NCBI GenBank assembly: GCA_040902305.1
Contig: JBBDXN010000134.1
Span: 11,920-75,919, forward strand
Direction: 5' to 3'
From: Candidatus Rokuibacteriota bacterium
GTDB lineage: Bacteria; Methylomirabilota; Methylomirabilia; Rokubacteriales; CSP1-6
DNA length: 64,000 nucleotides
Positions 5,210 through 50,275 of the stretch are shown here, piece by piece (the first letter of the stretch is position 1; each line of letters begins with the position of its first letter). Below the pieces are notes generated by a model, which searched no databases, had not been told where the DNA came from, and saw nothing but the letters and a program-made list of their open reading frames with translations. A program made the translations under genes and the position numbers.

Positions 5210-5749
5210 TCAGGGAACAACCTCCCGCCACTCCCCAGGTCGCAGCTCCCCGAGGGAGTACGGCCCCACCGCCGCCCGGATCAACCGTAGCGTGGGGTGC
5301 CCCACCGCCGCGGTCATTCGCCGCACCTGCCGGTTCCGCCCCTCGCGCAGCCCGATCTCGATCCACGCGGTCGGGATCGCCGCGCGGTAGCGGATCGGCG
5401 GCTCGCGCGGCCAGAGTCGCGGCGGCTCCGAGATGAGCGCCACCCGCGCCGGCCGCGTCCGCCCGTCCTTGAGCGCGATGCCCTGACGCAAGCGCTCGAG
5501 CGCCTCCGCGGCCGGCATGCCCTCCACCTGCGCCCAGTAGACTTTCTCGACCCCGTGGCGCGGCTCGGCCAGGCGCGACTGGAGCGCGCCGTCGTCGGTC
5601 AGCAGCACGAGCCCCTCGCTGTCGTGGTCGAGGCGCCCGGCCGGGTAGACGTCGCGTACCGGCACGTGGTCGGCCAGGGTCGGCCGTCCCGCCTGGTCGG
5701 TGAACTGGCAGAGCACGCCGAACGGCTTGTTGAGCAGGAGCAGCGTCAC
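5210..5749 (-). CDS. rluE: 23S rRNA pseudouridine synthase RluE (RsuA/RluE family)
   Basis: 179 aa. [32 protein letters not shown] (catalytic Asp) and [15 protein letters not shown] match RluE closely. Confidence 0.85.
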
Positions 5750-6825
5750 TCGGGCAGCAGCGGAGCCATCTGACGCGGGTCCAGCTCGAGCCAGACCTTC
5801 TCGTCCACCTCGAATACCTCGTGCGGACGGGCGGTGACCCGCAGGCTCAGCGCGCTCCCGGCGGGCCGCACCGTGTAGTCCCAGTGCTCGCCGAGATACG
5901 CGCGCTGCATCACCGCGCCGGGCACGACCGCGCCGCCCCGCTCGGCGGCGGCGGGCGGCTGGCGGTGCAGCACGATGGACTGCGGCCGCAGCGAGAAGCT
6001 CACCCGGCCCTGGGCCGCCGGCGGCTCCGCGAAGGCGCGCCGGGGGATCTCGAAGTGATCGAAGGCGATCGCCTCGCCCCGCGCCTCGCCGTCGAGGAAG
6101 TTGGTGCGGCCGATGAAGCCGGCCACGAATCGAGTACGTGGACGCGCATAGACCGCACGCGGGGCGTCCACCTGCTCGATGCGTCCCTGGTTCATGACCG
6201 CGATGCGGTCGGACGTCACCATCGCCTCCGCCTGGTCATGGGTGACGTAGACGGTCGTGATGTGGAACTCGTCGTGCAGGCGGCGGATCTCGTAGCGCAT
6301 CTCCTCACGCAGGTTCGCGTCGAGGTTGCTGAGCGGCTCGTCGAGCAGCAGGATGGTGGGCTGCACCACGATGGCGCGCGCGAGCGCCACCCGCTGCTGC
6401 TGCCCGCCCGACAGCTCCTGCGGATACCGCCCGCCCAGATGGCCCATCTGCACCACGCCCAGGATCTTGTCCACCCGCGCGCGGATCTCCACGCGCGGCA
6501 GGCGCCGGACTTCCAGGCCGAAGGCCACGTTCTCGGCCACCGTCATGTTCGGCCAGATCGCGTAGCTCTGGAAGATCATCGACATGTTGCGCTTCTCGGG
6601 CGGCAGGGTGGAGGACGGCGAGGAGATCGTGCGGCCGTCCATCGCGATGGTGCCCGCGCTCGGCTCGAGGAATCCCGCGATCATCCGGAGCGTCGTGGTC
6701 TTGCCGCAGCCGGAGGGGCCGAGCAGCGAGACGAACTCACCCTGGGCCAGGGAGAGGCTGAAGCGGTCCACCGCGGTCACGCTGCCGAAGCGGCGGCTCA
6801 CGTCGGTGAGGACGAGACGGCTCAC
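5746..6825 (-). CDS. ABC transporter ATP-binding protein (Fe3+/polyamine FbpC-PotA type)
   Basis: 359 aa. Walker [10 protein letters not shown], signature LSGGQQQR, Walker B LLLDEP, and a C-terminal TOBE-like region. Confidence 0.9.
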
Positions 6826-8504
6826 GAGGCGGTCCTCTTCAAGAGAAAATCGCGGCCGACGAGGCGGAAGCCCAGCAGCACCAGCGCCACCGTGCCCACG
6901 ACCAGGATGAGGCCCATCGAGGAGAGCACCTCGAAGTTGCCCTCGTCGCTCTTGTCGAAGAGCAGGACCGAGAGTACCTGGGTGCCGGTGGTGTAGAGGA
7001 AGATGGCGGAGGACAGCTCGCGGGTGGCCGGGATGAACACGAGGATGAAGGCGCCGGCCAGCCCGCGCTTGAGCAGCGGCGCCACCACGCGGCGCAGGGC
7101 CAGCAGCCGGCTCCCGCCCAGGATGCGGGCGGCGTCCTCAAGCTCCGGGTTGATGCTGCGCAGCGCCGCGTCGCTGTTCGTGTACGCGATCGGCAGGAAG
7201 CGGGTGGCGAAGGCCAGGATCAGGATCCACGCGGTGCCGTAGAGCACGAGCGGCTTCGTGGTGTACGCGGCGTAGAAGCCGATGGCGAGCACGATGCCCG
7301 GGATCACGAAGGGCGCCATCGCCACGTAGGTCAGCGCGCGGCCGAACGGCACCAGCCGCCGGGCCACGATGTAGGCGATGGCCAGAGCCAGGCCGAGCGC
7401 GATGATGGACGCGACCGCCGCGTAGACGAAGGTGTTGACGGTCGCCGCGCGGGTGGCGGTCTGGTCGAAGAGCACGAAGCGCAGGTTGTGCAAGGTGAGG
7501 TTGTCCCAGGAGAAGCCGCGGCCCCAGGCCTTCGCGAAGGCGGCCTGCAGCACCACCACCATCGGCACGAAGAAGGACAGCGAGGTCACGAAGAGGCAGT
7601 AGCCGAGCAGGGCCCAGCGCCAGCGGCCGAGCCGCACCATGCGCCGCTCACCGCCCTTGCCGGTGAGGGCCACGAAGCCCTTGCGCGCCATCAGGCGGTA
7701 CTGGAGCCAGAACAGGAACACGGTGATCAGCAGCAGCGGCATCGCGTAGGCGGCCGCCTCCTGCAGGCGCGGGGGGAACTCGAACATCTGCCACAGCATG
7801 GTGGTCATGACCTGGAAGCGGGCGGGGAGCGCGATGAGGGCGGGGGCGCCGAACAGGGCGATCGCCTCCAGGAACTCCACGATGAAGGCGCCCATGATCG
7901 CGGGCAGCGCGAGCGGCAGGGTCACCCGGAGGGTGGTGCGGAGCGTGGAGGCCCCGAGCGTGCTCGCCGCGTCCTCCATCTCGGAGGAGATCAGGTCGAG
8001 GGCGGAGCGGGTGAACACGAACATGTAGGGGAACGAATAGCAGGCGATGACCAGCACCAGCCCGGTCTTGCTGTAGATGTTGAAGGGGCCGGCGTCGGCG
8101 CCGGTCAGCCCGGTGTAGATGCGGTTGAGCCAGCCCGCGTTGGGGCCCGCCATGAGGATCCAGGCCACCGCGCCCAGGTAGTTGGGCATGATGAAGGTGC
8201 CGAGGACGGAGGCCCACACCAGCCCCTTGCCCGGCATGTCGGTGCGGGACACCGCCCACGCCATCGGCACCCCGAACACGATACAGAGCCCCGCTGCTGC
8301 GAGCCCGACGACCAGGGAATTGATCAGCGCTTCGATGTTGCGCCAGCGGCCGTAGGCGGCCGCGTAATTCTCGAGCGTGAAGGCGCCGGTCTGTGGATGC
8401 TCGAAGCTCGCCCACAGGAGACGGGCGAGCGGATTGACCACGAGCAGCAGCAGCAGCGCGATCAGCAGCAGCCAGACGACGAGCGACTTGTCTCTAGATA
8501 CCAA
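6822..8504 (-). CDS. ABC transporter permease, fused two-domain (FbpB-like)
   Basis: 560 aa, polytopic, with two EAA-type permease modules (EDAASTLGAS..., EDAARILGGS...). 4-nt overlap with the ATPase gene. Confidence 0.9.
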   Translation of the reverse strand: MVSRDKSLVVWLLLIALLLLLVVNPLARLLWASFEHPQTGAFTLENYAAAYGRWRNIEALINSLVVGLAAAGLCIVFGVPMAWAVSRTDMPGKGLVWASVLGTFIMPNYLGAVAWILMAGPNAGWLNRIYTGLTGADAGPFNIYSKTGLVLVIACYSFPYMFVFTRSALDLISSEMEDAASTLGASTLRTTLRVTLPLALPAIMGAFIVEFLEAIALFGAPALIALPARFQVMTTMLWQMFEFPPRLQEAAAYAMPLLLITVFLFWLQYRLMARKGFVALTGKGGERRMVRLGRWRWALLGYCLFVTSLSFFVPMVVVLQAAFAKAWGRGFSWDNLTLHNLRFVLFDQTATRAATVNTFVYAAVASIIALGLALAIAYIVARRLVPFGRALTYVAMAPFVIPGIVLAIGFYAAYTTKPLVLYGTAWILILAFATRFLPIAYTNSDAALRSINPELEDAARILGGSRLLALRRVVAPLLKRGLAGAFILVFIPATRELSSAIFLYTTGTQVLSVLLFDKSDEGNFEVLSSMGLILVVGTVALVLLGFRLVGRDFLLKRTAS

Positions 8505-9540
8505 AGGTCTCGCGGAACTGCTCCTTCACCTCCGGGATGCCCTTCTCGATCTCGGCGGCGGAGGGCCGGATCGTCTTGACCTCCGCGATGGACTTGCCGC
8601 CCGTCATCGGCTTCACGTGCTTGTTCACCGGGTCCTGGTGCTGCTTCACCATCACCTCGTTGCCCTCCCGGCTCAGCAGGTATTCCATGAAGAGCTTGGC
8701 CGCGTTGGGGGCGGGGGCGTTCTTGAGGATGCCGGAGGCCGAGACCATCAGCACCGCGCCGTCCTCCGGATAGACCACCGCGAGGGGATTGCCCTTGGCC
8801 TTGCTCTCCAGCGTGGTGGCCGACGGGCCCGCGGCCACGATGGACTCCTTGGCGTTCAGCATGGTCACGGTGTCGTTGATCGAGCGGCCGATGCGCGGCT
8901 TGTTCAGCTCGAGCTTCTTGAAGTAGTCCCAGCCGTGGAGCTTGCGCATCTGCACGACCCAGGTTCCCACGTAGCCGCTGAAGCCCGGATGGCCGATCGA
9001 GACCTTCCCCTTCCACTTGGGGTCGGTGAGGTCGGCCCACTTCTTTGGGGCCTCCGAGGCGGATACCACGCTCGTATTGTAGGTGATGAGGACGAGACCC
9101 GCCGCGGTGGCCACGAACTGGTCCTCCGGGTCGTTGAACGGCCGGAAGGCGTCCACCAGCTCGCCGAGAGTCTTCGGCTTGTAGGCCTGTAGCCAGCCGT
9201 CCTGCTTCATCCTGGTGTAGTGGCTCTGATCGGTGGAGCTGATCACCGAGGCCTGGGCGATGCCCGCCTTCTGGTCCTGGGCGAGCCGCTGGTAGGCGAC
9301 CTGGGCGGTGGTGCGGATGTAGTTGCACTTCACGCCCGGGTACTTCTTCTCGAAGCCCTGGCAGATGGCCGCCGCGGTCTCCGAGTTGTAGTGGGCGGTG
9401 TACCAGGTGAGCTCCTTCTCCTTCTTGGCCGCCTCGTGGAGCGGCTTCTCGCCGTCGAAGGCGACCGCGGGCGCGCTCCTCATGCCGACGACGGACAGGA
9501 CCGCGAGTACCGCGACGATGAACACTCGAATGGATGTCAT
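8494..9540 (-). CDS. ABC transporter periplasmic substrate-binding protein (Fe3+-type family 1)
   Basis: 348 aa with a signal peptide (MTSIRVFIVAVLAVLSVVGMRSAPA). First gene of the binding protein, permease, ATPase order. Confidence 0.85.
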   Translation of the reverse strand: MTSIRVFIVAVLAVLSVVGMRSAPAVAFDGEKPLHEAAKKEKELTWYTAHYNSETAAAICQGFEKKYPGVKCNYIRTTAQVAYQRLAQDQKAGIAQASVISSTDQSHYTRMKQDGWLQAYKPKTLGELVDAFRPFNDPEDQFVATAAGLVLITYNTSVVSASEAPKKWADLTDPKWKGKVSIGHPGFSGYVGTWVVQMRKLHGWDYFKKLELNKPRIGRSINDTVTMLNAKESIVAAGPSATTLESKAKGNPLAVVYPEDGAVLMVSASGILKNAPAPNAAKLFMEYLLSREGNEVMVKQHQDPVNKHVKPMTGGKSIAEVKTIRPSAAEIEKGIPEVKEQFRETFGI

Positions 9541-9554
9541 GGGCGGTTTCTCCT

Positions 9555-10394
9555 TTATCGTCCGGTGAAGCGGGGCGCGCGCTTCTCGACGAAGTGGGCC
9601 ACGCCTTCCTTGAAGTCTTCGGTGGTGAAGCTCCGGCGCATCTCGTCGTCGCCGACCGCCGTCGCCTCCGCCAGGCTCTGGAACTGCGCCTCCCAGAGCT
9701 GGCGCTTCATGACCCGGAGCGAGCGCGGCGACACCAGGTCCGCGAGCTCGCGCGCGTAGGCGCGCACGTCGTCCTGGAGGCTGGCCGCCGGCTTCACCTG
9801 CGCGACCAGGCCCATCGCGAGCGCCTCCGCCGCGGTGATCGTGCGCGCGGACAGCAGCAGGTCGAAGGCATGCTGCAGGCCCACCAGGCGCGGGAGCATC
9901 CAGCTCGCCCCGTGCTCGGCGATGAGCCCCCGCCGCGAGAACGCGGTGGTGAAGACCGCGGTGTCGGCGGCGATGCGCAGATCGCAGTAGAGCGAGACGA
10001 CCAGGCCGAGCCCGGCGGTGGCCCCGTTCAGCGCCGCGATGATCGGCTTGGGGACCATCGGGAAGTAGGCGTAGGGCCCGCGGAAGTCGGGGCGGACGTC
10101 TCCGCCGGCGCCGGCCGCGTCATCCGGCTCGCCGCGCTCCGAGGAGCCCGCCGGCTCCTGCCGGCCCGCGCCCGCGATGCCGGAGAGCATCTGCATGTCG
10201 GCGCCCGCGCAGAAGCCGCGCCCGGCCCCGGGCAGCACGATCACGCGCACCGCCTCGTCGCGCCCGGCCTCCTCCATCGCCTGCCGCACCTCGCGCCCCA
10301 TCACGCCGGTCCACGCATTCAGCTTCTCGGGCCGGTTCAGGGTGACCGTGGCGATCCGCTCTCGCACCTCGTACAGGATCTGCTCGTAGCCCAT
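9555..10394 (-). CDS. enoyl-CoA hydratase/isomerase (crotonase) family protein
   Basis: 279 aa. VTLNRPEKLNAW, the GAGRGFCAGAD oxyanion motif and AALNGATAGLG. Confidence 0.9.
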   Translation of the reverse strand: MGYEQILYEVRERIATVTLNRPEKLNAWTGVMGREVRQAMEEAGRDEAVRVIVLPGAGRGFCAGADMQMLSGIAGAGRQEPAGSSERGEPDDAAGAGGDVRPDFRGPYAYFPMVPKPIIAALNGATAGLGLVVSLYCDLRIAADTAVFTTAFSRRGLIAEHGASWMLPRLVGLQHAFDLLLSARTITAAEALAMGLVAQVKPAASLQDDVRAYARELADLVSPRSLRVMKRQLWEAQFQSLAEATAVGDDEMRRSFTTEDFKEGVAHFVEKRAPRFTGR

Positions 10395-10436
10395 GCGCGC
10401 GCCCCCCTCGCGTGCCGCATGATAGCGCGTCCGGAC

Positions 10437-10500
10437 GGGGTCAGGTCTTACATTCCGACATTTCGACGCGGTGCGATGTTGGAATGTAAGACCTGACCCC
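10437..10500. repeat. perfect 20-bp inverted repeat (hairpin element), family 2
   Basis: GGGGTCAGGTCTTACATTCC (10437-10456) and GGAATGTAAGACCTGACCCC (10481-10500) flank a 24-nt spacer. A 28-nt solo arm recurs at 49752-49779. Confidence 0.85.
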
Positions 10501-10502
10501 AG

Positions 10503-11753
10503 CTAGCGGCGGTGCGACTCGCGGTCGATGGCGGGGCCGGCGAGGAGGGAGACGGCGGTGACGAGGCCGGAAAGGGCGGCGAAGACGGCCCAGGCGACTG
10601 CGTAGGAGTCGAAGCCCTCCAGCAGGAGGCCGAAGACCGGGGGGCCGATGAGCAGGCCCAGCACGATGGACGCGAAGGCCACGCCGCTCAGCAGGCCTGC
10701 CTGCCGCGGCCCGCCCGCCTCCGCGCTGATCACGAAGAAGATGCCGACCCAGCCGTAGGCGCCCACGCCGGCCAGGAAGGCGAGCAGCCCCGCGGTGACG
10801 GGCGCGGTCGCGGGCCACACCGCGTAGAGGGCGAAGATGACCGCGGCCAGGGCGCCCGTGACCACGAGCCAGAGGGAGCGCCGGCCGGTGGCCCAGCGGT
10901 CGCTGGCCGCGCCCAGCACGAGGCGGGACACCGCGCCGCCTCCCTGCGAGGCGGCCACGAGGAACCCGGCGCCGATCTTGTCGAAGCCGAGCGCCTGGAT
11001 CGTGAAGAGCGGCAGATAGCTCAGCACCGCGCCCTGGACCATGCCGAGCACGAAGCCGGCCGCGAAGAAGAGGACCAGCGCGGGGCGCCGCGCCCACCAC
11101 CACGTCGAGCCCGCGTCCGGCCCGCCGGGCGTGACCGGCGTCGTGCCGCGCGCGCCCTCGCGGAACGCGGCGAGCGGCCGCCAGCCGAGCGCCACCGGCG
11201 CCGCCACGATCACCGAGCAGGCCCCGATGGCGTAGCGCCAGCCCAGCGTGGCCGCGATGGCGGGCAGGGCCAGCGCCGAGATCAGGCCGCCCACCGTGAG
11301 GCCCATCTGCTTGACGCCCATCGCGATGCCGCGCTCGCTCACCGGGAAGGCGTCCATGATGGCCTTGCCCAGCGCGGGGTTCACGACACTCCAGCCGCTG
11401 CCCGCGACGAAGAGGCAGAAGAGGAAGGAGAGGAAGCCTGGTGCCAGCGCCGCCGCGAGGAGCCCGATCGCGCCCACCGCGAGGCCGCCCAGGAAGGCGG
11501 GTCGCACGCCGAGCCGATCGGCGAGCCGCCCGCCCGGCAGCGAGAACAGGAGGCCGGCGAGATAGATGGACGGGATGAGAAAGGCGACCTGGAATCGGGT
11601 GAGCCCGAGCCCCTCCACCAGGCTCGGCGAGAGCGGGGAGATGCCGAGCATGCCGACGGCGCCGGCGCCGTAGGAGGCGGTGAGGACGGTGAGCAGGCGC
11701 CACCGCGCGGGCAGCGCGGACGCGGCGCTCGCGGCCGGCGCGGATTCGCTCAC
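10503..11753 (-). CDS. MFS transporter
   Basis: Only the C-terminal 416 aa of the 936-aa track ORF look real: about 12 TM segments and the GGRLADRLG MFS motif. GTG start at 11753 overlaps the stop of the upstream gene (GTGA). Confidence 0.8.
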   Translation of the reverse strand: MSESAPAASAASALPARWRLLTVLTASYGAGAVGMLGISPLSPSLVEGLGLTRFQVAFLIPSIYLAGLLFSLPGGRLADRLGVRPAFLGGLAVGAIGLLAAALAPGFLSFLFCLFVAGSGWSVVNPALGKAIMDAFPVSERGIAMGVKQMGLTVGGLISALALPAIAATLGWRYAIGACSVIVAAPVALGWRPLAAFREGARGTTPVTPGGPDAGSTWWWARRPALVLFFAAGFVLGMVQGAVLSYLPLFTIQALGFDKIGAGFLVAASQGGGAVSRLVLGAASDRWATGRRSLWLVVTGALAAVIFALYAVWPATAPVTAGLLAFLAGVGAYGWVGIFFVISAEAGGPRQAGLLSGVAFASIVLGLLIGPPVFGLLLEGFDSYAVAWAVFAALSGLVTAVSLLAGPAIDRESHRR

Positions 11754-27597: not shown

Positions 27598-28691
27598 CTC
27601 CGGACCAACTCGGCGACCGACTTCAACGGACTGCCGTCTTTCCTTGTGATCGGCCGCCGCGCCGGCCCGGTCTGGTCCCCGAACGTGGGCTGCCAGCAGG
27701 AGTGCTTGCCCGCGCCGCCGGTCACGATCACGGTCAGGTCGTCGGCGGAGCGTACCGCGGGCACCATGGTGTCGGGCGCGTCCTTGGCGCCGCGCTGGAT
27801 CAGGTGCGCGCGGTACTCGTCACCGAGCCGCGCCAGCGGGAAGCGGGCGTGCTCGAAGAGGAACTCCTTGACCTGCCGCTTGGTGAAGCCGTCGCGCGCG
27901 ATCGTGGCGGCGTGCTCGGGGCCGAGCGAGAGCAGGGGATGGCCGCCGGCCAGGAGATTGTTGCTGCCCGCCTGGCCCATGGCGCCCGCGATCACCTTCA
28001 AGATGCCGAGGCCGGTGTAACTGAAGTGGTCCTGGATATTGTGCGGGCCCTCGCACGCGATTGCGGTGACCAGGCTCGTGGCGGCCGGGAAGCCGTGTTC
28101 AATGTGTAGTGGCTCCCACGGGTTCGCTTCCTCGTTCTCGGCCACGCAGTAGGCGATCTTGGCCGGGCTGCCCTGGGTGGCGCGGTCGCCGGTGCCGGGC
28201 AGGCCGCCGCCCACGTTCATCAGGACGAGCCGGATCGCGCGCCCGATCGTGAGGTTGGCGCGGAAGCCCTGGCCGAAGGCGTTGTAGCCCGAGTTGATGC
28301 CGACCTCTTTTGCGATCGGCCCGTTGACGATGATCAGCGGGGCCACCGGGTGCGTGGTGGCCTGGATGGAGTCGAGATTGAACGCGGGATCGGCCAGCGC
28401 CTCGACCGCGGTGAGGATGACCGGCAGGTATTCCGGCCGGCAGCCCGCCATGATCGCGTTGATCGCGATGCGCTCCACCGTGGCCTCGCCTTGGCGCGGC
28501 GGCAGCACCGCCATGACTTCGCGCGGCTCCCGATCGGTGATGCGCAGGAACTCGCGCACGTCCTCTTCGGTTGGGGGCACGATCGGCAGCCCGTCGGTCC
28601 AGCCCTGCCCCTGATAGTGCCGGTTGATCTCCGAGTAGCCGCCCTTGAGGCGGAAGATCTTGGCCGCCGGGCCCGAGGCGGACACGCTCAT
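27594..28691 (-). CDS. conserved hypothetical protein (last gene of the UGSC operon)
   Basis: 365 aa with coding-like composition. The ATG overlaps the UGSC gene stop (ATGA). I cannot assign a family to the motif WTDGLPIVPPT. Confidence 0.7.
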   Translation of the reverse strand: MSVSASGPAAKIFRLKGGYSEINRHYQGQGWTDGLPIVPPTEEDVREFLRITDREPREVMAVLPPRQGEATVERIAINAIMAGCRPEYLPVILTAVEALADPAFNLDSIQATTHPVAPLIIVNGPIAKEVGINSGYNAFGQGFRANLTIGRAIRLVLMNVGGGLPGTGDRATQGSPAKIAYCVAENEEANPWEPLHIEHGFPAATSLVTAIACEGPHNIQDHFSYTGLGILKVIAGAMGQAGSNNLLAGGHPLLSLGPEHAATIARDGFTKRQVKEFLFEHARFPLARLGDEYRAHLIQRGAKDAPDTMVPAVRSADDLTVIVTGGAGKHSCWQPTFGDQTGPARRPITRKDGSPLKSVAELVRS

Positions 28692-29218
28692 CCCCGCGTG
28701 ACCGCCTTCCGCACGATCTCGACCGCGAGCTCCGCCTTCTTCACAACCTCGTCCTCGCGGATGCCGCCCAGCGGGTGGGGGATCAAGGCCAGGGGCAGAT
28801 CGGCGAGCCCGCGGTTCTTCGACTCGAGCCTCGCCAACTGCTCGAACTCATACGTCCCCATGACCACGGTGGGGATCCCCCGCTGCTCCAGTACGATGGC
28901 GCCGTGGATACTCCACGACGTGCACGACCCTCAGTCGGCGCTGCCGACCAGGACGAAGTCGCACGTCGTGAGCGCGGCCAGGATGTCGGGCGACGGCGCG
29001 CCCGCGATGCCCTTCTCGCGCTTGACGACGTCGCGGACCCCGTACTTCTCCTTGAGGCGCGCGACCACCGCCAGCATCAGGGTGCCCGCGTTGGCCTTGC
29101 TGTTGTCGAGGATGCCCGCGCGCTTGCCCTCGAGGCTGGCCAGGCGGGGCGCCAGGCCCGAGGCGAGAATCCGAGGCTCGGCGGTGGGGTCGTACAGGAC
29201 CTGCTCGTCCTGGCTCAT
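28688..29218 (-). CDS. UGSC-family selenoprotein (in-frame UGA = Sec at 28931-28933)
   Basis: The track ORF (95 aa) stops at a TGA, but the frame continues 81 codons to TGA 28688-28690. That second stop forms an ATGA overlap with the next gene. Read-through gives ...VLVGSAD-U-GSCTSWSIHGAIVLEQRGIPTVV..., the defining U-G-S-C motif. A hairpin follows 10 nt after the UGA. Confidence 0.8.
28900..28920 (-). other. putative bacterial SECIS hairpin of the UGSC gene
   Basis: The mRNA reads CGU-CGUGGA-GUA-UCCACG-GCG. This is a 6-bp perfect stem extendable to 9 bp including a G-U pair, with G and U in the apical loop, starting 10 nt after the UGA. Confidence 0.55.
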
Positions 29219-29730
29219 CGGCTGATCTCCTTCCGCCCTCGTAGTTTCCGATCATCCAGCAAGGTCAGCATCCGGTCCACGCCCAGCTCGAGGCACCGCT
29301 TGATCTCGTCCCGCGTCGCGCGGTAGCGGTCCTCGCCCTGGCCGAACGGGTCGTCGACGTCGCCGGCCTCGCCGGCCAGCTCGTGCAAGGTCAGGATCGG
29401 CCGGCCCTGGGCCTCCTCGTAGGCGCCGATCGTCTCCTTCTGCTGCCCGGTCATGGTGACGATGAGGTGCGCCTCCGCCACGATCTCGCGGTGACGGCGG
29501 AGGTCGGTGGAGGCGAACGCGTCCTCGGCCAGGTGGATGTCGTCCTCGCGCAGCACGATGCGCGCGTCGAGCGAGGGAATCATGCCGTCGCGGGCGTGGT
29601 TGGCGATGCCGCCCGAGCGCACCCGGACGTTGCCATTCACCCCGCGCGAATCGAGCATCTTCTCCAGGAGGACGTGGGCCATCACGCTGCGGCAGGTATT
29701 GGCGTGACAGACCAGGAGGACGTTGGTCAA
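29215..29730 (-). CDS. low-molecular-weight protein-tyrosine phosphatase / ArsC-like (C-X5-R-S)
   Basis: 171 aa. VLLVCHANTCRS P-loop near the N-terminus and the DVDDPFG general-acid motif. Only a TTG at 29730 (TTGA overlap with the upstream stop) places the P-loop correctly. The stop overlaps the UGSC start (ATGA). Confidence 0.78.
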   Translation of the reverse strand: MTNVLLVCHANTCRSVMAHVLLEKMLDSRGVNGNVRVRSGGIANHARDGMIPSLDARIVLREDDIHLAEDAFASTDLRRHREIVAEAHLIVTMTGQQKETIGAYEEAQGRPILTLHELAGEAGDVDDPFGQGEDRYRATRDEIKRCLELGVDRMLTLLDDRKLRGRKEISR

Positions 29731-32526: not shown

Positions 32527-32982
32527 TCAACGATCCAGGCGGGCGACCGAGACCCCGGCCGGGCCGCCTCCACCGTCCCGGTACAGCGCGTCGATGAGCG
32601 GACAGTGGGAGGCCTTGCCCGACGCGCAGCGCGCGACCGTGTCTCGGAGGACGCGCTCCATCTCTCTCAAGCTGGCGATCTTGGCCCGCACGTCCTCGAG
32701 ATGCGTCGCGGCAAGGCCGCGAGCCTCGGCGCAGGGGCGCTTGCGGTGGTCGGCCAGGGCCAGCAGGGCTCGTACCTCGTGGATGGAGAAACCCAGCGCC
32801 CGGGCTCGCCGGACGAAGGCGAGCCGTTTCAGGTGGTCTGTCCCGTAGAGACGGTAACCGCCGCCACTTCGCGCGGGTGTCGGCAGGAGCCCGGCCCGCT
32901 CGTAGTACCGGATCGTCTCGACGTTGCAGCCGGTGCGCTTGGAAAGGACCCCGATGGCGAAGCGGACTGCAATAGCCGGCAT
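32527..32982 (-). CDS. merR: MerR-family regulator with Hg(II)-type Cys triad
   Basis: 151 aa from the ATG at 32982, preceded by GGAGGAG. HTH GCNVETIRYYERAGLLP. Cys84, Cys119 and Cys127 (spacings 35 and 8, against 35 and 9 in Tn501 MerR) and the C-terminal HCPLI motif. Confidence 0.85.
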   Translation of the reverse strand: MPAIAVRFAIGVLSKRTGCNVETIRYYERAGLLPTPARSGGGYRLYGTDHLKRLAFVRRARALGFSIHEVRALLALADHRKRPCAEARGLAATHLEDVRAKIASLREMERVLRDTVARCASGKASHCPLIDALYRDGGGGPAGVSVARLDR

Positions 32983-33014
32983 GGCGGTCTCCTCCGGTCG
33001 GCTGAAAATATGTG

Positions 33015-33045
33015 TTGAGTCTGTAGCCGCTACAGACTTTATCAT
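33015..33045 (+). promoter_or_regulatory. MerR-type operator/promoter (19-bp spacer with perfect dyad)
   Basis: TTGAGT (33015-33020), a 19-nt spacer, then TATCAT (33040-33045). The dyad GTCTGTAGC-C-GCTACAGAC spans 33019-33037. The -10 ends 6 nt before the merB-like ATG. Confidence 0.75.
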
Positions 33046-33051
33046 CCCCCC

Positions 33052-33714
33052 ATGGCGACCCTGCACATCCTGACCGCCGACGAGCTCACCGCTCTCGACC
33101 TGGAAGGCCGGTGGAGGACGCGACGGGTCGCTCGGGAGCTCAGGATGTCTCGGCGGATTCTGCGGATGTTCCTGGATCGCGGCGGCCCGATCCCGGTTCA
33201 AGACATCGTCTCGGCCTCCGAGGATTCCGCTGGGTCCGTTCATCAGACGTTGACCGCGCTGGACGACGACGATCTGATCCTCATTCGTGATGGCCAGATA
33301 GACGTCGCGTACCCGTTCTCCGCTTCCCCGACGCCGTTCGTCGTCCGTCTGGCCGAGGGCCGGGAGCGGTACGCCTGCTGCGCGATGGACGCACTCGGCA
33401 TCGCGCCGATGGTCGGCCAGCGCATCGAGATCCGATCCCGCTGTCATCACTGCGGCGAGCCCCTGCAGTTCCCGGTCGATCCGCAGGGCCCGGGGCCCAG
33501 GGCGGAAGGCATCATGCTCTGGATCGGCAAGCAACCGGAAGAGAGATGCCGAGTCGCCGATACGTATTGAACGACCATCAATTTCTTCCGGTCGGAAGAA
33601 CATCTGAGGGCATGGCGGGAGGCGAACCCGACGGTCGAAGGAGCCGGGACCACGGTGGCAGAGGGCTTCAAGCTCGGTGACCGCATCTTCGGGGGGCTTC
33701 TCACAGGAGAGTAA
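33052..33714 (+). CDS. merB: organomercurial lyase MerB homolog with in-frame UGA (Sec) at the Cys159-equivalent position
   Basis: The track ORF stops at TGA 33568-33570, but the frame stays open to TAA 33712-33714. AYPFSA and [11 protein letters not shown] (Cys96-x-x-Asp99 equivalent) lie upstream. Read-through gives [20 protein letters not shown], compared with MerB SFCCHVHFFAS. A SECIS-like hairpin lies 12 nt downstream. Confidence 0.75.
33583..33600 (+). other. putative bacterial SECIS hairpin of the merB-like gene
   Basis: UUCUUCC-GGUC-GGAAGAA is a 7-bp perfect stem with a GGUC tetraloop, the same apical loop sequence as the E. coli fdhF SECIS. It starts 12 nt after the UGA. Confidence 0.6.
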
Positions 33715-33716
33715 GG

Positions 33717-33956
33717 ATGGCGGATCGTCGAATCACGGTCTACTGGTCCTCGACCTGACAGTCCTGCCACGCGGCGAAGGAGTTCCTTTCGTCTCGGGGA
33801 GTGCCGTTCACGGCGAAGAACGTGGCGGAGGACGCGACCGCCCGTGAGGAGCTGATCGGCAAGACCGGCCGGATGGCGGTGCCGGTGATCACGGTGGACG
33901 ATGTGGTGATCGTCGGGTTCGACCGGGGTCGGCTGCAGCGGCTCCTCGGGCCATGA
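33717..33956 (+). CDS. glutaredoxin-like (NrdH/Grx fold) selenoprotein, U-x-x-C active site
   Basis: Not in the ORF track. ATG 33717 (GGAGAG 8 nt upstream), TGA at 33756-33758, stop TGA 33954-33956 overlapping the next start (ATGA). Translation: MADRRITVYWSST-U-QSCHAAKEFLSSRGVPFTAKNV...GRMAVPVITVDDVVIVGFDRGRLQRLL. This has the Grx layout with UQSC where CxxC is expected, and the cis-Pro VP motif. Confidence 0.75.
33774..33792 (+). other. putative bacterial SECIS hairpin of the Grx-like gene
   Basis: GCGAAGG-AGUU-CCUU(U)CGU: a stem with one bulged U and a GU-containing tetraloop, starting 15 nt after the UGA. Confidence 0.45.
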
Positions 33957-34243
33957 CCGTCGCCGCGGTTCGCTGCCCCGACTGTGGCGCGCCGATCACC
34001 CTGGCCGCAGGCCTCGAGTCAGGCGCCTTGCTCGACTGCCCGAACTGCGCGGGGCATGCGGTTCGGGTTCGGGAAGAGGACGGCCGCTGGTCCGCCACCC
34101 TGGCTTACCGAGTGAGCTGCCCGACCTGCGATGAAGTCATGGCCCTTGCCGAGGATGCCAAGCCGGGGGATACGGTCTCGTGCTGTGGCCGCCGCTACCG
34201 ACTCACGTTCGAGTACGGCGCGTTCGCCGCCGAGGAAGCGTAG
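33953..34243 (+). CDS. Cys-rich double zinc-ribbon protein (LysW-like ribbons)
   Basis: 96 aa. CPDCG...CPNC and CPTC...CCG pairs. ATGA overlap with the Grx-like gene. Confidence 0.6.
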   Translation: MTVAAVRCPDCGAPITLAAGLESGALLDCPNCAGHAVRVREEDGRWSATLAYRVSCPTCDEVMALAEDAKPGDTVSCCGRRYRLTFEYGAFAAEEA

Positions 34244-49783: not shown

Positions 49784-50275
49784 TCAGGCGCCGATGGCCT
49801 GCTCGACGGCCTGTTTGACCTCGGGCGCGGTGGGCGCGGTCTTGGGCTCGAAGCGCGCGGCGACCTGGCCGGTCTTGTCTACCAGAAACTTGGCGAAGTT
49901 CCACTTGATGTCGCCCGAGCCGTCGGGCTTCGTGGCCTGGCCGGTCAGCCAGGTGTAGAGCGGGGCGCGGCCGCCGCCGTTGACCTCGATCTTGGAGAAC
50001 ATCGGGAACGTGACGCCGTAGGTGGTCGAGCAGAACGTCTTGACGTCGGGGTCGCTGCCCGGCTCCTGCCCCGCGAACTGGTTGCAGGGGAACCCAAGCA
50101 CCGCGAAGCCCCGCGGGCCGTACTCGGCCTGCAGCGCCTGGAGCGCCTCGTACTGCGGCGTGAGCCCGCACTTCGACGCCACGTTGACCACCAGCAGGGC
50201 CTTGCCGCGATAGTCACCGAGCGACTGCTCCTTGCCGTCGATGGTCTTCACCGTGAAGTCGTAGATCCCGGCCAT
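49784..50275 (-). CDS. glutathione peroxidase (Cys type)
   Basis: 163 aa. NVASKCGLT (TGC codon, not TGA), FPCNQF and WNF motifs. Confidence 0.9.
   Translation of the reverse strand: MAGIYDFTVKTIDGKEQSLGDYRGKALLVVNVASKCGLTPQYEALQALQAEYGPRGFAVLGFPCNQFAGQEPGSDPDVKTFCSTTYGVTFPMFSKIEVNGGGRAPLYTWLTGQATKPDGSGDIKWNFAKFLVDKTGQVAARFEPKTAPTAPEVKQAVEQAIGA

Follow-up and report, generated by a model that had tools for sequence, protein, structure and literature searches.

We analyzed a 64,000-nt stretch of DNA (hereafter the window) from a Candidatus Rokuibacteriota bacterium (assembly GCA_040902305.1, contig JBBDXN010000134.1, positions 11,920–75,919; 69.5% GC), which carries a gene of the MerB (organomercurial lyase) family, merB-U, with an in-frame UGA at a catalytic position. 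The gene occupies positions 33052–33714 of the forward strand and has 220 codons, the UGA being codon 173. An earlier note on this DNA had claimed that its frame runs from 33052 through 172 codons to a TGA at 33568–33570, and then through 47 further codons to a TAA at 33712–33714, giving a read-through product of near-normal MerB size. Both the frame, which opens with an ATG at 33052, and the size (220 residues) were confirmed. The C-terminal extension of 47 codons (33571–33711), which ends in FGGLLTGE, is translated only if the UGA is decoded, and the MerB-family gene is complete only when the TGA at 33568–33570 is read through. A hairpin of the selenocysteine insertion sequence (SECIS) type lies at 33583–33600, and merB-U is the first structural gene of a cassette ordered merR / merB-U / grx-U / zinc-ribbon. 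Based on protein alignment and the codons of orthologs, the UGA is predicted to encode selenocysteine (Sec) at the position equivalent to the catalytic Cys159 of MerB.

Homology to MerB and the catalytic site

The homology to MerB, which the earlier note had proposed from the letters of the sequence, extends across the UGA. The read-through protein matches the full PF03243 (MerB) profile (positions 1–126 of 126, residues 89–214) with an E-value of 1.8e-31 and a score of 109.2 bits, compared to a gathering score of 27. The match spans the TGA, and a match to the whole domain requires read-through. When the PDB was searched with phmmer, only MerB2 (5c17, E-value 4.6e-11) and R831b MerB (3f2g, 1s6l and others, E-values of about 1e-10) were returned.

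These alignments place the UGA where the earlier note had counted it to be. The alignment to 3f2g (R831b MerB C160S) pairs the TGA position with Cys159 (query ...dtyCttinff, chain 3f2g ...qsfCshvhff), and the alignment to MerB2 (5c17) has the identical register, with the TGA position again opposite Cys159. The other two catalytic residues are likewise present upstream, where YACCAMDAL pairs with YAWCALDTL and carries the equivalents of Cys96 (C110) and Asp99 (D113); both are invariant in our alignment A2 and present in nearly all representatives. At the Hg-ligating position 159, the aligned codon is a UGA, which is equivalent to Cys only if it is decoded as Sec. We strongly infer such decoding, which would place the selenium analogue of Cys at this position.

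The fold agrees with the alignment. An AlphaFold2 (AF2) model of the Cys-type ortholog P0017, calculated with a 33-sequence alignment, has a mean predicted local distance difference test score (pLDDT) of 86.6 and a predicted template modeling score (pTM) of 0.86. A Foldseek comparison of this model to the PDB yielded 11 significant matches, all of them MerB or MerB2, with template modeling (TM) scores of 0.63–0.74 and identities of 21–24%. None of the models in NCBIfam release 20 captures the clade.

Conservation of the UGA, the extension and the hairpin

A protein search over 5.8 billion proteins identified more than 1000 relatives, of which the best 120 were inspected. Nearly all of these 120 are 170–173 residues long, cover 76–78% of the query and share a common end point, down to 62% identity. 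More than 100 protein clusters at 90% identity stop at residue 170–173, and all of the clade's database entries that were examined end before the position-159 residue. With P0017 as the query, an exhaustive search of 1.84 billion representatives found 1126 relatives. Among them, about 30 clusters at 50% identity terminate precisely at position 172 and keep Cys96 and Asp99, and the more distant relatives (43% identity or less) are full length and Cys-type. The full-length proteins P0017 and P0039 have a Cys exactly at the window's TGA position, followed by the same extension (...SFCTTLNFFRSGEHLRGW...), and the three Cys forms (P0017, P0039 and P0121) have the sequence ...S[FL]CTT.NFFRS....

A DNA-level scan, using one genome per species, found 29 loci. 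The earlier note had called for a tally of TGA and TGC codons among orthologs, and the count is TGA at 28 loci and in the window, and TGC at one locus (L029). All loci remain in frame past the site, reading T-T-[IL]-N-F-F-R-S-E-[ED]-H-L-R-A-W...G-A-G...F-K-.-G...F-G-G-L-L, and the same TGA is kept in proteins that have diverged to 44% identity. The downstream codons, whose loss or frameshift in orthologs would have counted against the reading of the earlier note, are conserved in all 28 TGA loci. In the 34 codons of the extension beyond the hairpin, the median ratio of nonsynonymous to synonymous substitution rates (dN/dS) is 0.18, similar to that of the catalytic core (0.16), and therefore the extension is translated. 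The same extension is present in one natural TGC (Cys) ortholog and in two more Cys-type clusters.

The codons that flank the UGA are also fixed. The residue before the UGA is Tyr in the window and Leu in 25 orthologs, encoded by CTC in all 25 cases, and the codon after it is ACG in 27 of the 29 sequences. These fixed flanking codons (window positions 33565–33573, and L001–L028) hint that Sec insertion may require a particular codon context in addition to the hairpin. As a separate observation, the copy in L029 (6333–6964), which is the only TGC copy in the genome collection, is frameshifted upstream, after ...DALGIA. An intact protein of identical type, P0017, is recorded on 12 metagenome contigs, and the grx gene adjoining the Cys-type merB in L029 still has its TGA.

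We then consider the hairpin, for which the earlier note had reported a perfect 7-bp stem and an apical loop like that of the Escherichia coli fdhF SECIS. Both descriptions are accurate: the stem pairs UUCUUCC (33583–33589) with GGAAGAA (33594–33600) around a GGUC loop (33590–33593), and the element starts 12 nt after the UGA, overlapping the FFRSE codons. According to the E. coli K-12 sequence, the fdhF UGA is codon 140 and its GGUC loop spans +22 to +25, compared to +23 to +26 in the window. The two elements therefore share an in-frame hairpin directly 3′ of the UGA, an identical GGUC loop and a position that agrees within 1 nt. They differ in that fdhF has a bulged U in its upper stem, whereas the stem here is a plain, perfect helix of 6–8 bp. 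Perfect 7-bp hairpins with loops of 3–6 nt occur 122 times in 128 kb (both strands), which gives a chance of about 1.2% that one starts within a 13-nt span following a given codon.

The weight of the hairpin evidence is comparative, not thermodynamic. Thermodynamics was not used as evidence, because shuffled sequences fold at least as well as the 81 nt that follow the merB and grx UGAs. Across species, the hairpin CUUCUUCC-GGUC-GGAAGA is nucleotide-invariant in all 29 Sec-type copies. Its codons (TTC TTC CGG TCG GAA) have zero codon entropy across these 29 sequences; other Arg and Ser codons in the gene have entropies of 1–2.3 bits. Synonymous divergence (pS) is 0.14 across the hairpin versus about 0.6 elsewhere, an approximately fourfold drop. 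The three known Cys-type members act as a natural control for this element: in L043 (P0039) a CGG to CGC change turns the GGUC loop into GCUC, in L029 (P0017) a GAA to GGA change falls within the stem, and in L045 (P0121) the element is unchanged. The element is thus altered in two of the three Cys-type revertants versus none of the 29 Sec-type copies (hypergeometric estimate, 3/496 = 0.006), as would be expected of an element that is required only for as long as the codon remains UGA.

The Sec-type genes come mostly from Rokubacteria and Methylomirabilota metagenome-assembled genomes (MAGs) of soil and groundwater. The labels of 22 of the 29 loci read Rokubacteria, Rokuibacteriota or Methylomirabilota, and those of the remaining ones Acidobacteria, Myxococcales, Actinomycetota, Gemmatimonadales, Vicinamibacterales or unclassified. 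We built a neighbour-joining tree from the shared core (about 100 columns, without bootstrap), in which all 23 Sec-type representatives fall into one clade, with three Cys-type clusters nested at separate places, and the sister groups together with MerB and MerB2 are all Cys-type. The simplest reading of this topology is a single switch from Cys to Sec, with a small number of later reversions. FFRSE, a signature that the hairpin imposes, persists in the revertants and is missing in the outgroups (FFCS, FFAS), which fits a Cys-to-Sec switch and subsequent reversion.

The mer cassette and selenocysteine use in the window

A MerR-family metal-sensing regulator (PF00376, PF13411 and PF09278) is encoded divergently from merB-U, at 32527–32982 on the reverse strand. 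Its best NCBIfam match is the Hg-type MerR model TIGR02051 (135 bits, compared to a cut-off of 150.85), and its position relative to merB-U is the same in most orthologous loci. Downstream, on the forward strand, are the glutaredoxin-like gene grx-U (33717–33956) and a gene for a Cys-rich double zinc-ribbon (LysW-like) protein (33953–34243; PF21344, 37.9 bits), which comes after grx-U in most loci. The four cassette genes have third-position GC contents (GC3) of 0.79–0.85, compared to 0.92–0.96 in the flanking genes, which suggests that the module at 32527–34243 was acquired horizontally.

Orthologous cassettes continue further, with merF (54 bits, compared to a cut-off of 24.3), a 118-residue membrane protein and a heavy-metal-associated (HMA; MerP-like) protein, all three of which are missing from the window's copy. 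P-type ATPase and cation-efflux genes are often found beside these cassettes, Cys-type members adjoin MerE and a weak MerC match, and some members of the clade are solitary, among metabolic genes. Of the features of a canonical mer operon, an adjacent MerR is present, Hg transport genes are found in orthologous cassettes, and a linked merA was not found in the window or L001–L034. The 118-residue membrane protein (L030, 7935–8291; L002, 11322–11645) follows MerF, is conserved and has no Pfam family; its N-terminal SLCCLLP motif is reminiscent of the paired cysteines (CC) in the Mer transporters MerT, MerF and MerC. One Rokubacteria contig, L011, carries two cassettes about 4 kb apart: the one at 5600–6883 has MerR, zinc-ribbon, membrane-protein and HMA genes and no merB, and the one at 9523–11146 has MerR, merB-U, a degraded grx and a zinc-ribbon gene.

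Two additional genes with in-frame TGA codons lie within 5 kb of merB-U, belong to known selenoprotein families and have hairpin loops containing G-U. The first is grx-U, whose UGA (33756–33758) lies in a U-x-x-C motif (S-T-U-Q-S-C) and is followed by a hairpin at 33773–33793. Its product matches PF00462 at 59 bits, and matches TIGR02196 (YruB-like, 82 bits) and NF041212 below their cut-offs. The TGA is present in all 19 copies of grx-U beside merB, with a conserved hairpin (GGCGAAAGA-GUU-UCUUUCGUC). Gene callers miss or fragment this gene. The second is a candidate selenoprotein gene of the UGSC family on the reverse strand (28688–29218), with a TGA at 28931–28933 in ...GSAD-U-GSC... and a hairpin at 28900–28920, which has 9 bp and a GUA loop and begins 13 nt after the TGA. 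With read-through, its 176-residue product matches the full profile of NF041046 ('UGSC family (seleno)protein') at 120.5 bits, compared to a cut-off of 125.

The GC3 of the UGSC gene is 0.94, native to the region, and therefore Sec use by the host does not appear to depend on the mer module. Overall, the host appears to decode Sec, as judged from these genes. This would be in line with published work on the phylum: a Methylomirabilota MAG with 63 predicted selenoprotein genes has been described (PMC13188914, a 2026 review), and Sec-type hydrogenases are reported from Methylomirabilota (PMC13582414). A genome-wide reassignment of UGA was also considered and rejected, because TGA serves as an ordinary stop more often than any other codon, terminating 14 of the window's 24 confident long open reading frames.

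A crude GC3-based screen for in-frame TGA codons mostly returned antisense artefacts; it found the UGSC gene and missed both merB and grx. A glutathione peroxidase homolog at 49784–50275 (reverse strand; NF007900, 209.6 bits, cut-off 270) is Cys-type (…VASKCGLTP…), and therefore not every candidate Sec family here uses Sec. Beside the UGSC gene, the translation of 29215–29730 (reverse strand) includes VCHANTCRS, a sequence similar to the CX5R(S/T) motif found in low-molecular-weight phosphatases and ArsC-type arsenate reductases.

Known relatives, rival explanations and proposed mechanism

The earlier note had left open whether a Sec-containing MerB was already catalogued. In part it was: SaoL (NF040728), described in 2022/2023, is a MerB-like protein with a Sec aligned to Cys159 (Haft & Gwadz, bioRxiv 10.1101/2022.07.06.499078), and the present gene belongs to another clade and another context. 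According to the same authors, SaoL has a CU motif, is encoded in the nine-gene SAO locus (saoTECXLBPAD) of strict anaerobes with a proposed role in energy metabolism, and shares less than 15% identity with R831b MerB. SaoL is the only entry for the MerB fold in the family table of a 2026 review (PMC13188914), and MerB is unmentioned in the main text of BSepDB, deep-Sep and the GOS paper.

The two groups share the PF03243 fold, an in-frame UGA aligned with Cys159 some 50 residues from the C-terminus, equivalents of Cys96 and Asp99, routine truncation in databases and rare Cys-type members. They differ in several respects. The CU dipeptide of SaoL contrasts with L/Y-U-T-T in the present clade, which has 21–24% identity to MerBs (phmmer E-values of 1e-10 to 1e-11) as opposed to less than 15% for SaoL. 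The merB-U product scores 69.2 bits against NF040728, where the cut-off is 140, and only over residues 31–142. Its neighbours are MerR, grx-U, zinc-ribbon, MerF and HMA genes with metal efflux or metabolic genes, rather than the SAO locus; the SAO gene set was not seen in annotated neighbourhoods, where SAO proteins were not searched by sequence. Membership in SaoL was rejected, as the cut-off of the hidden Markov model (HMM), the CU motif and the neighbourhood all fail. We regard the clade as distinct from SaoL. An earlier mention of the clade may exist in Haft & Tolstoy 2025 (mSystems).

By HMM score and coverage, the merB-U product is nearer to canonical MerB than to SaoL. With canonical MerB (R831b, 3F0O/3F0P) and MerB2 (Bacillus megaterium, 5C17), it shares the fold (TM 0.63–0.74), the three catalytic positions and the mer-operon context with a divergent MerR. 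Unlike these enzymes, it has a UGA instead of a Cys codon at position 159 and lacks Cys160, it scores below the equivalog cut-offs, it has no adjacent merA that we could find, and its partner is a Sec-containing glutaredoxin-like protein rather than a classical mer gene. It is best described, from these comparisons, as a putative Sec variant of a mer-operon MerB-like lyase. Other Hg-handling proteins also have Sec in place of a metal-ligating Cys, but they have other folds and act in methylation, transport or metal binding, and the demethylating lyase of a MerR-controlled mer cassette is not among them.

Taken together, we assign a probability of about 85% to the reading that 33052–33714 encodes a 220-residue MerB-family enzyme whose UGA at 33568–33570 is decoded as Sec by means of a SECIS hairpin, within a MerR-controlled cassette, and which would act by an organomercurial lyase-type mechanism. 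At the level of sequence, this reading is directly supported by the homology, the alignment register, the conservation of the UGA, the translation of the extension and the RNA-level constraint on the hairpin. Several observations weigh against it. Neither the window nor about 380 kb of related loci yielded selA, selB, selD or tRNA-Sec: the E. coli proteins SelA, SelB and SelD, used as tblastn queries, gave no match at an E-value of 1e-3 or below in the window and L001–L034, and ARAGORN predicted tRNA-Sec in none of 30 related loci and no tRNA at all in the window. The hairpin's folding energy is no better than that of shuffled sequence (z = −0.49) at 69.5% GC. It has no covariation support, only invariance, as a stem that never varies allows no covariation. 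Rfam gave no match at its gathering thresholds across the whole window and nothing relevant at an E-value of 10 or below for 33500–33900. In the AF2 model, the loop with the Sec/Cys site (residues 162–174) is the sole region of low confidence. Because the product misses the canonical MerB cut-offs of NCBIfam (NF009710, 81.8 versus 193 bits; NF033555, 60.1 versus 200 bits) and has only 21–24% identity to the solved MerBs, its assignment as a lyase is an extrapolation. Finally, neither the window nor L001–L034 yielded a MerA-type redox motif (class-I disulfide-oxidoreductase), and the annotated neighbourhoods contain no Pyr_redox family.

Some of the same observations bear on rival explanations. 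The strongest rival accepts a genuine MerB-fold selenoprotein and gives it a substrate other than an organomercurial, such as another organometallic or a metal-thiolate (as proposed for SaoL), or a role in binding or transferring Hg(II) or another metal. The scores below the MerB equivalog cut-offs, the lack of a MerA nearby (in the window and L001–L034), the solitary members among metabolic genes and a window cassette without transporters would all suit such a protein, as would the argument by Haft & Gwadz that a Sec at a metal site may change substrate range (10.1101/2022.07.06.499078). We nevertheless consider it unlikely, given an intact triad of Cys96, Asp99 and position 159, a MerR-type regulator whose best match is Hg-type, clade neighbours that include MerF, HMA, MerE and a weak MerC match, and an HMM score and coverage closer to canonical MerB than to SaoL.

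Two other explanations deny that the UGA encodes Sec. In one, it is recoded to another residue, either to Cys by a selC*-type tRNA (tRNA-ReC) with SelB, or through near-cognate read-through stimulated by the hairpin. Systems with tRNA-ReC that use SelB and SECIS elements are known in the literature, and a 2026 hydrogenase study searched its genomes for them (PMC13582414). To encode Cys, a TGC codon would serve without any machinery, yet 29 of the 30 DNA copies have TGA and bear the cost of an invariant SECIS; near-cognate read-through would result in Trp or Arg where a catalytic residue is essential; and three gene families in the window share the same device. Such recoding is very improbable. 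In the other, the gene is a nonsense pseudogene, or encodes a truncated MerB of 172 residues lacking Cys159, with the downstream frame untranslated or forming a separate small open reading frame. This explanation has in its favour that gene callers everywhere annotate a product of 172–173 residues and a 46-residue fragment. Against it, the TGA is conserved down to 44% protein identity, the extension completes the Pfam profile with a dN/dS of 0.18, the hairpin is invariant at the nucleotide level and none of the first 14 codons of the window's extension is an ATG, GTG or TTG. The pseudogene was rejected because of the conserved TGA, the invariance of the hairpin codons and the dN/dS of the extension, and we give this explanation as a whole almost no weight.

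Under the preferred reading of a Sec-containing MerB, a mechanism can be proposed. The UGA at 33568–33570 would be decoded as Sec, directed by the in-frame hairpin at 33583–33600 with its GGUC loop. By analogy with R831b MerB, an organomercurial would be bound by Cys110 (equivalent to Cys96) and Sec173 (equivalent to Cys159), Asp113 (equivalent to Asp99) would protonate the leaving carbon, and Hg(II) would be held as a Cys-S/Sec-Se chelate until its transfer. We infer Sec insertion, organomercurial lyase activity (EC 4.99.1.2) and the fate of Hg(II) from this analogy and from the comparative analysis. Compared to a thiolate, a selenolate has a higher affinity for Hg, and it is ionised at neutral pH; it should therefore favour the capture of organomercurials at low concentration and the activation of the Hg-C bond, and it could also slow the release of product. 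Since merB-U is invariably paired with a UxxC glutaredoxin-like selenoprotein, we hypothesize that the latter might be a matched acceptor.

A broader and more speculative proposal, which we hold to be doubtful, is that the two selenoproteins form an Hg relay without a dedicated MerA, which would be common among soil and groundwater Rokubacteria and escape current merB surveys. In such a relay, the merB-U product would cleave the Hg-C bond and hold Hg(II) on its Cys-S/Sec-Se site, and the obligately co-encoded UxxC glutaredoxin-like protein would remove the Hg(II) by selenol-to-selenol ligand exchange. The Hg would then be passed to the Cys-rich zinc-ribbon or HMA proteins, followed by efflux or sequestration, for example as Hg-Se species.

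The finding would place a selenolate at the catalytic Hg-binding position of an enzyme that is much closer to the studied MerBs than SaoL is, and in a MerR-controlled cassette. The natural Sec/Cys pairs (P0017, P0039 and P0121) allow a direct test of how selenium affects Hg-C protonolysis and the release of product; small selone molecules that mimic MerB reportedly break Hg-C bonds faster than thiones do (PMC11639659). There is also value in the Sec-glutaredoxin partner of merB-U. Both the clade and the adjoining grx-U are poorly annotated, as no NCBIfam model captures the former and the latter is missed or fragmented. Surveys of merB screen candidates for Cys96, Asp99 and Cys159 (PMC12484752, methods). 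Because the clade's database entries end before position 159 and surveys require Cys159, the clade is probably under-counted, and so, probably, is the methylmercury-degrading potential of Rokubacteria/Methylomirabilota and other soil and groundwater lineages. If the relay does operate, it would constitute a selenium-dependent demethylation pathway that current merB surveys have missed.

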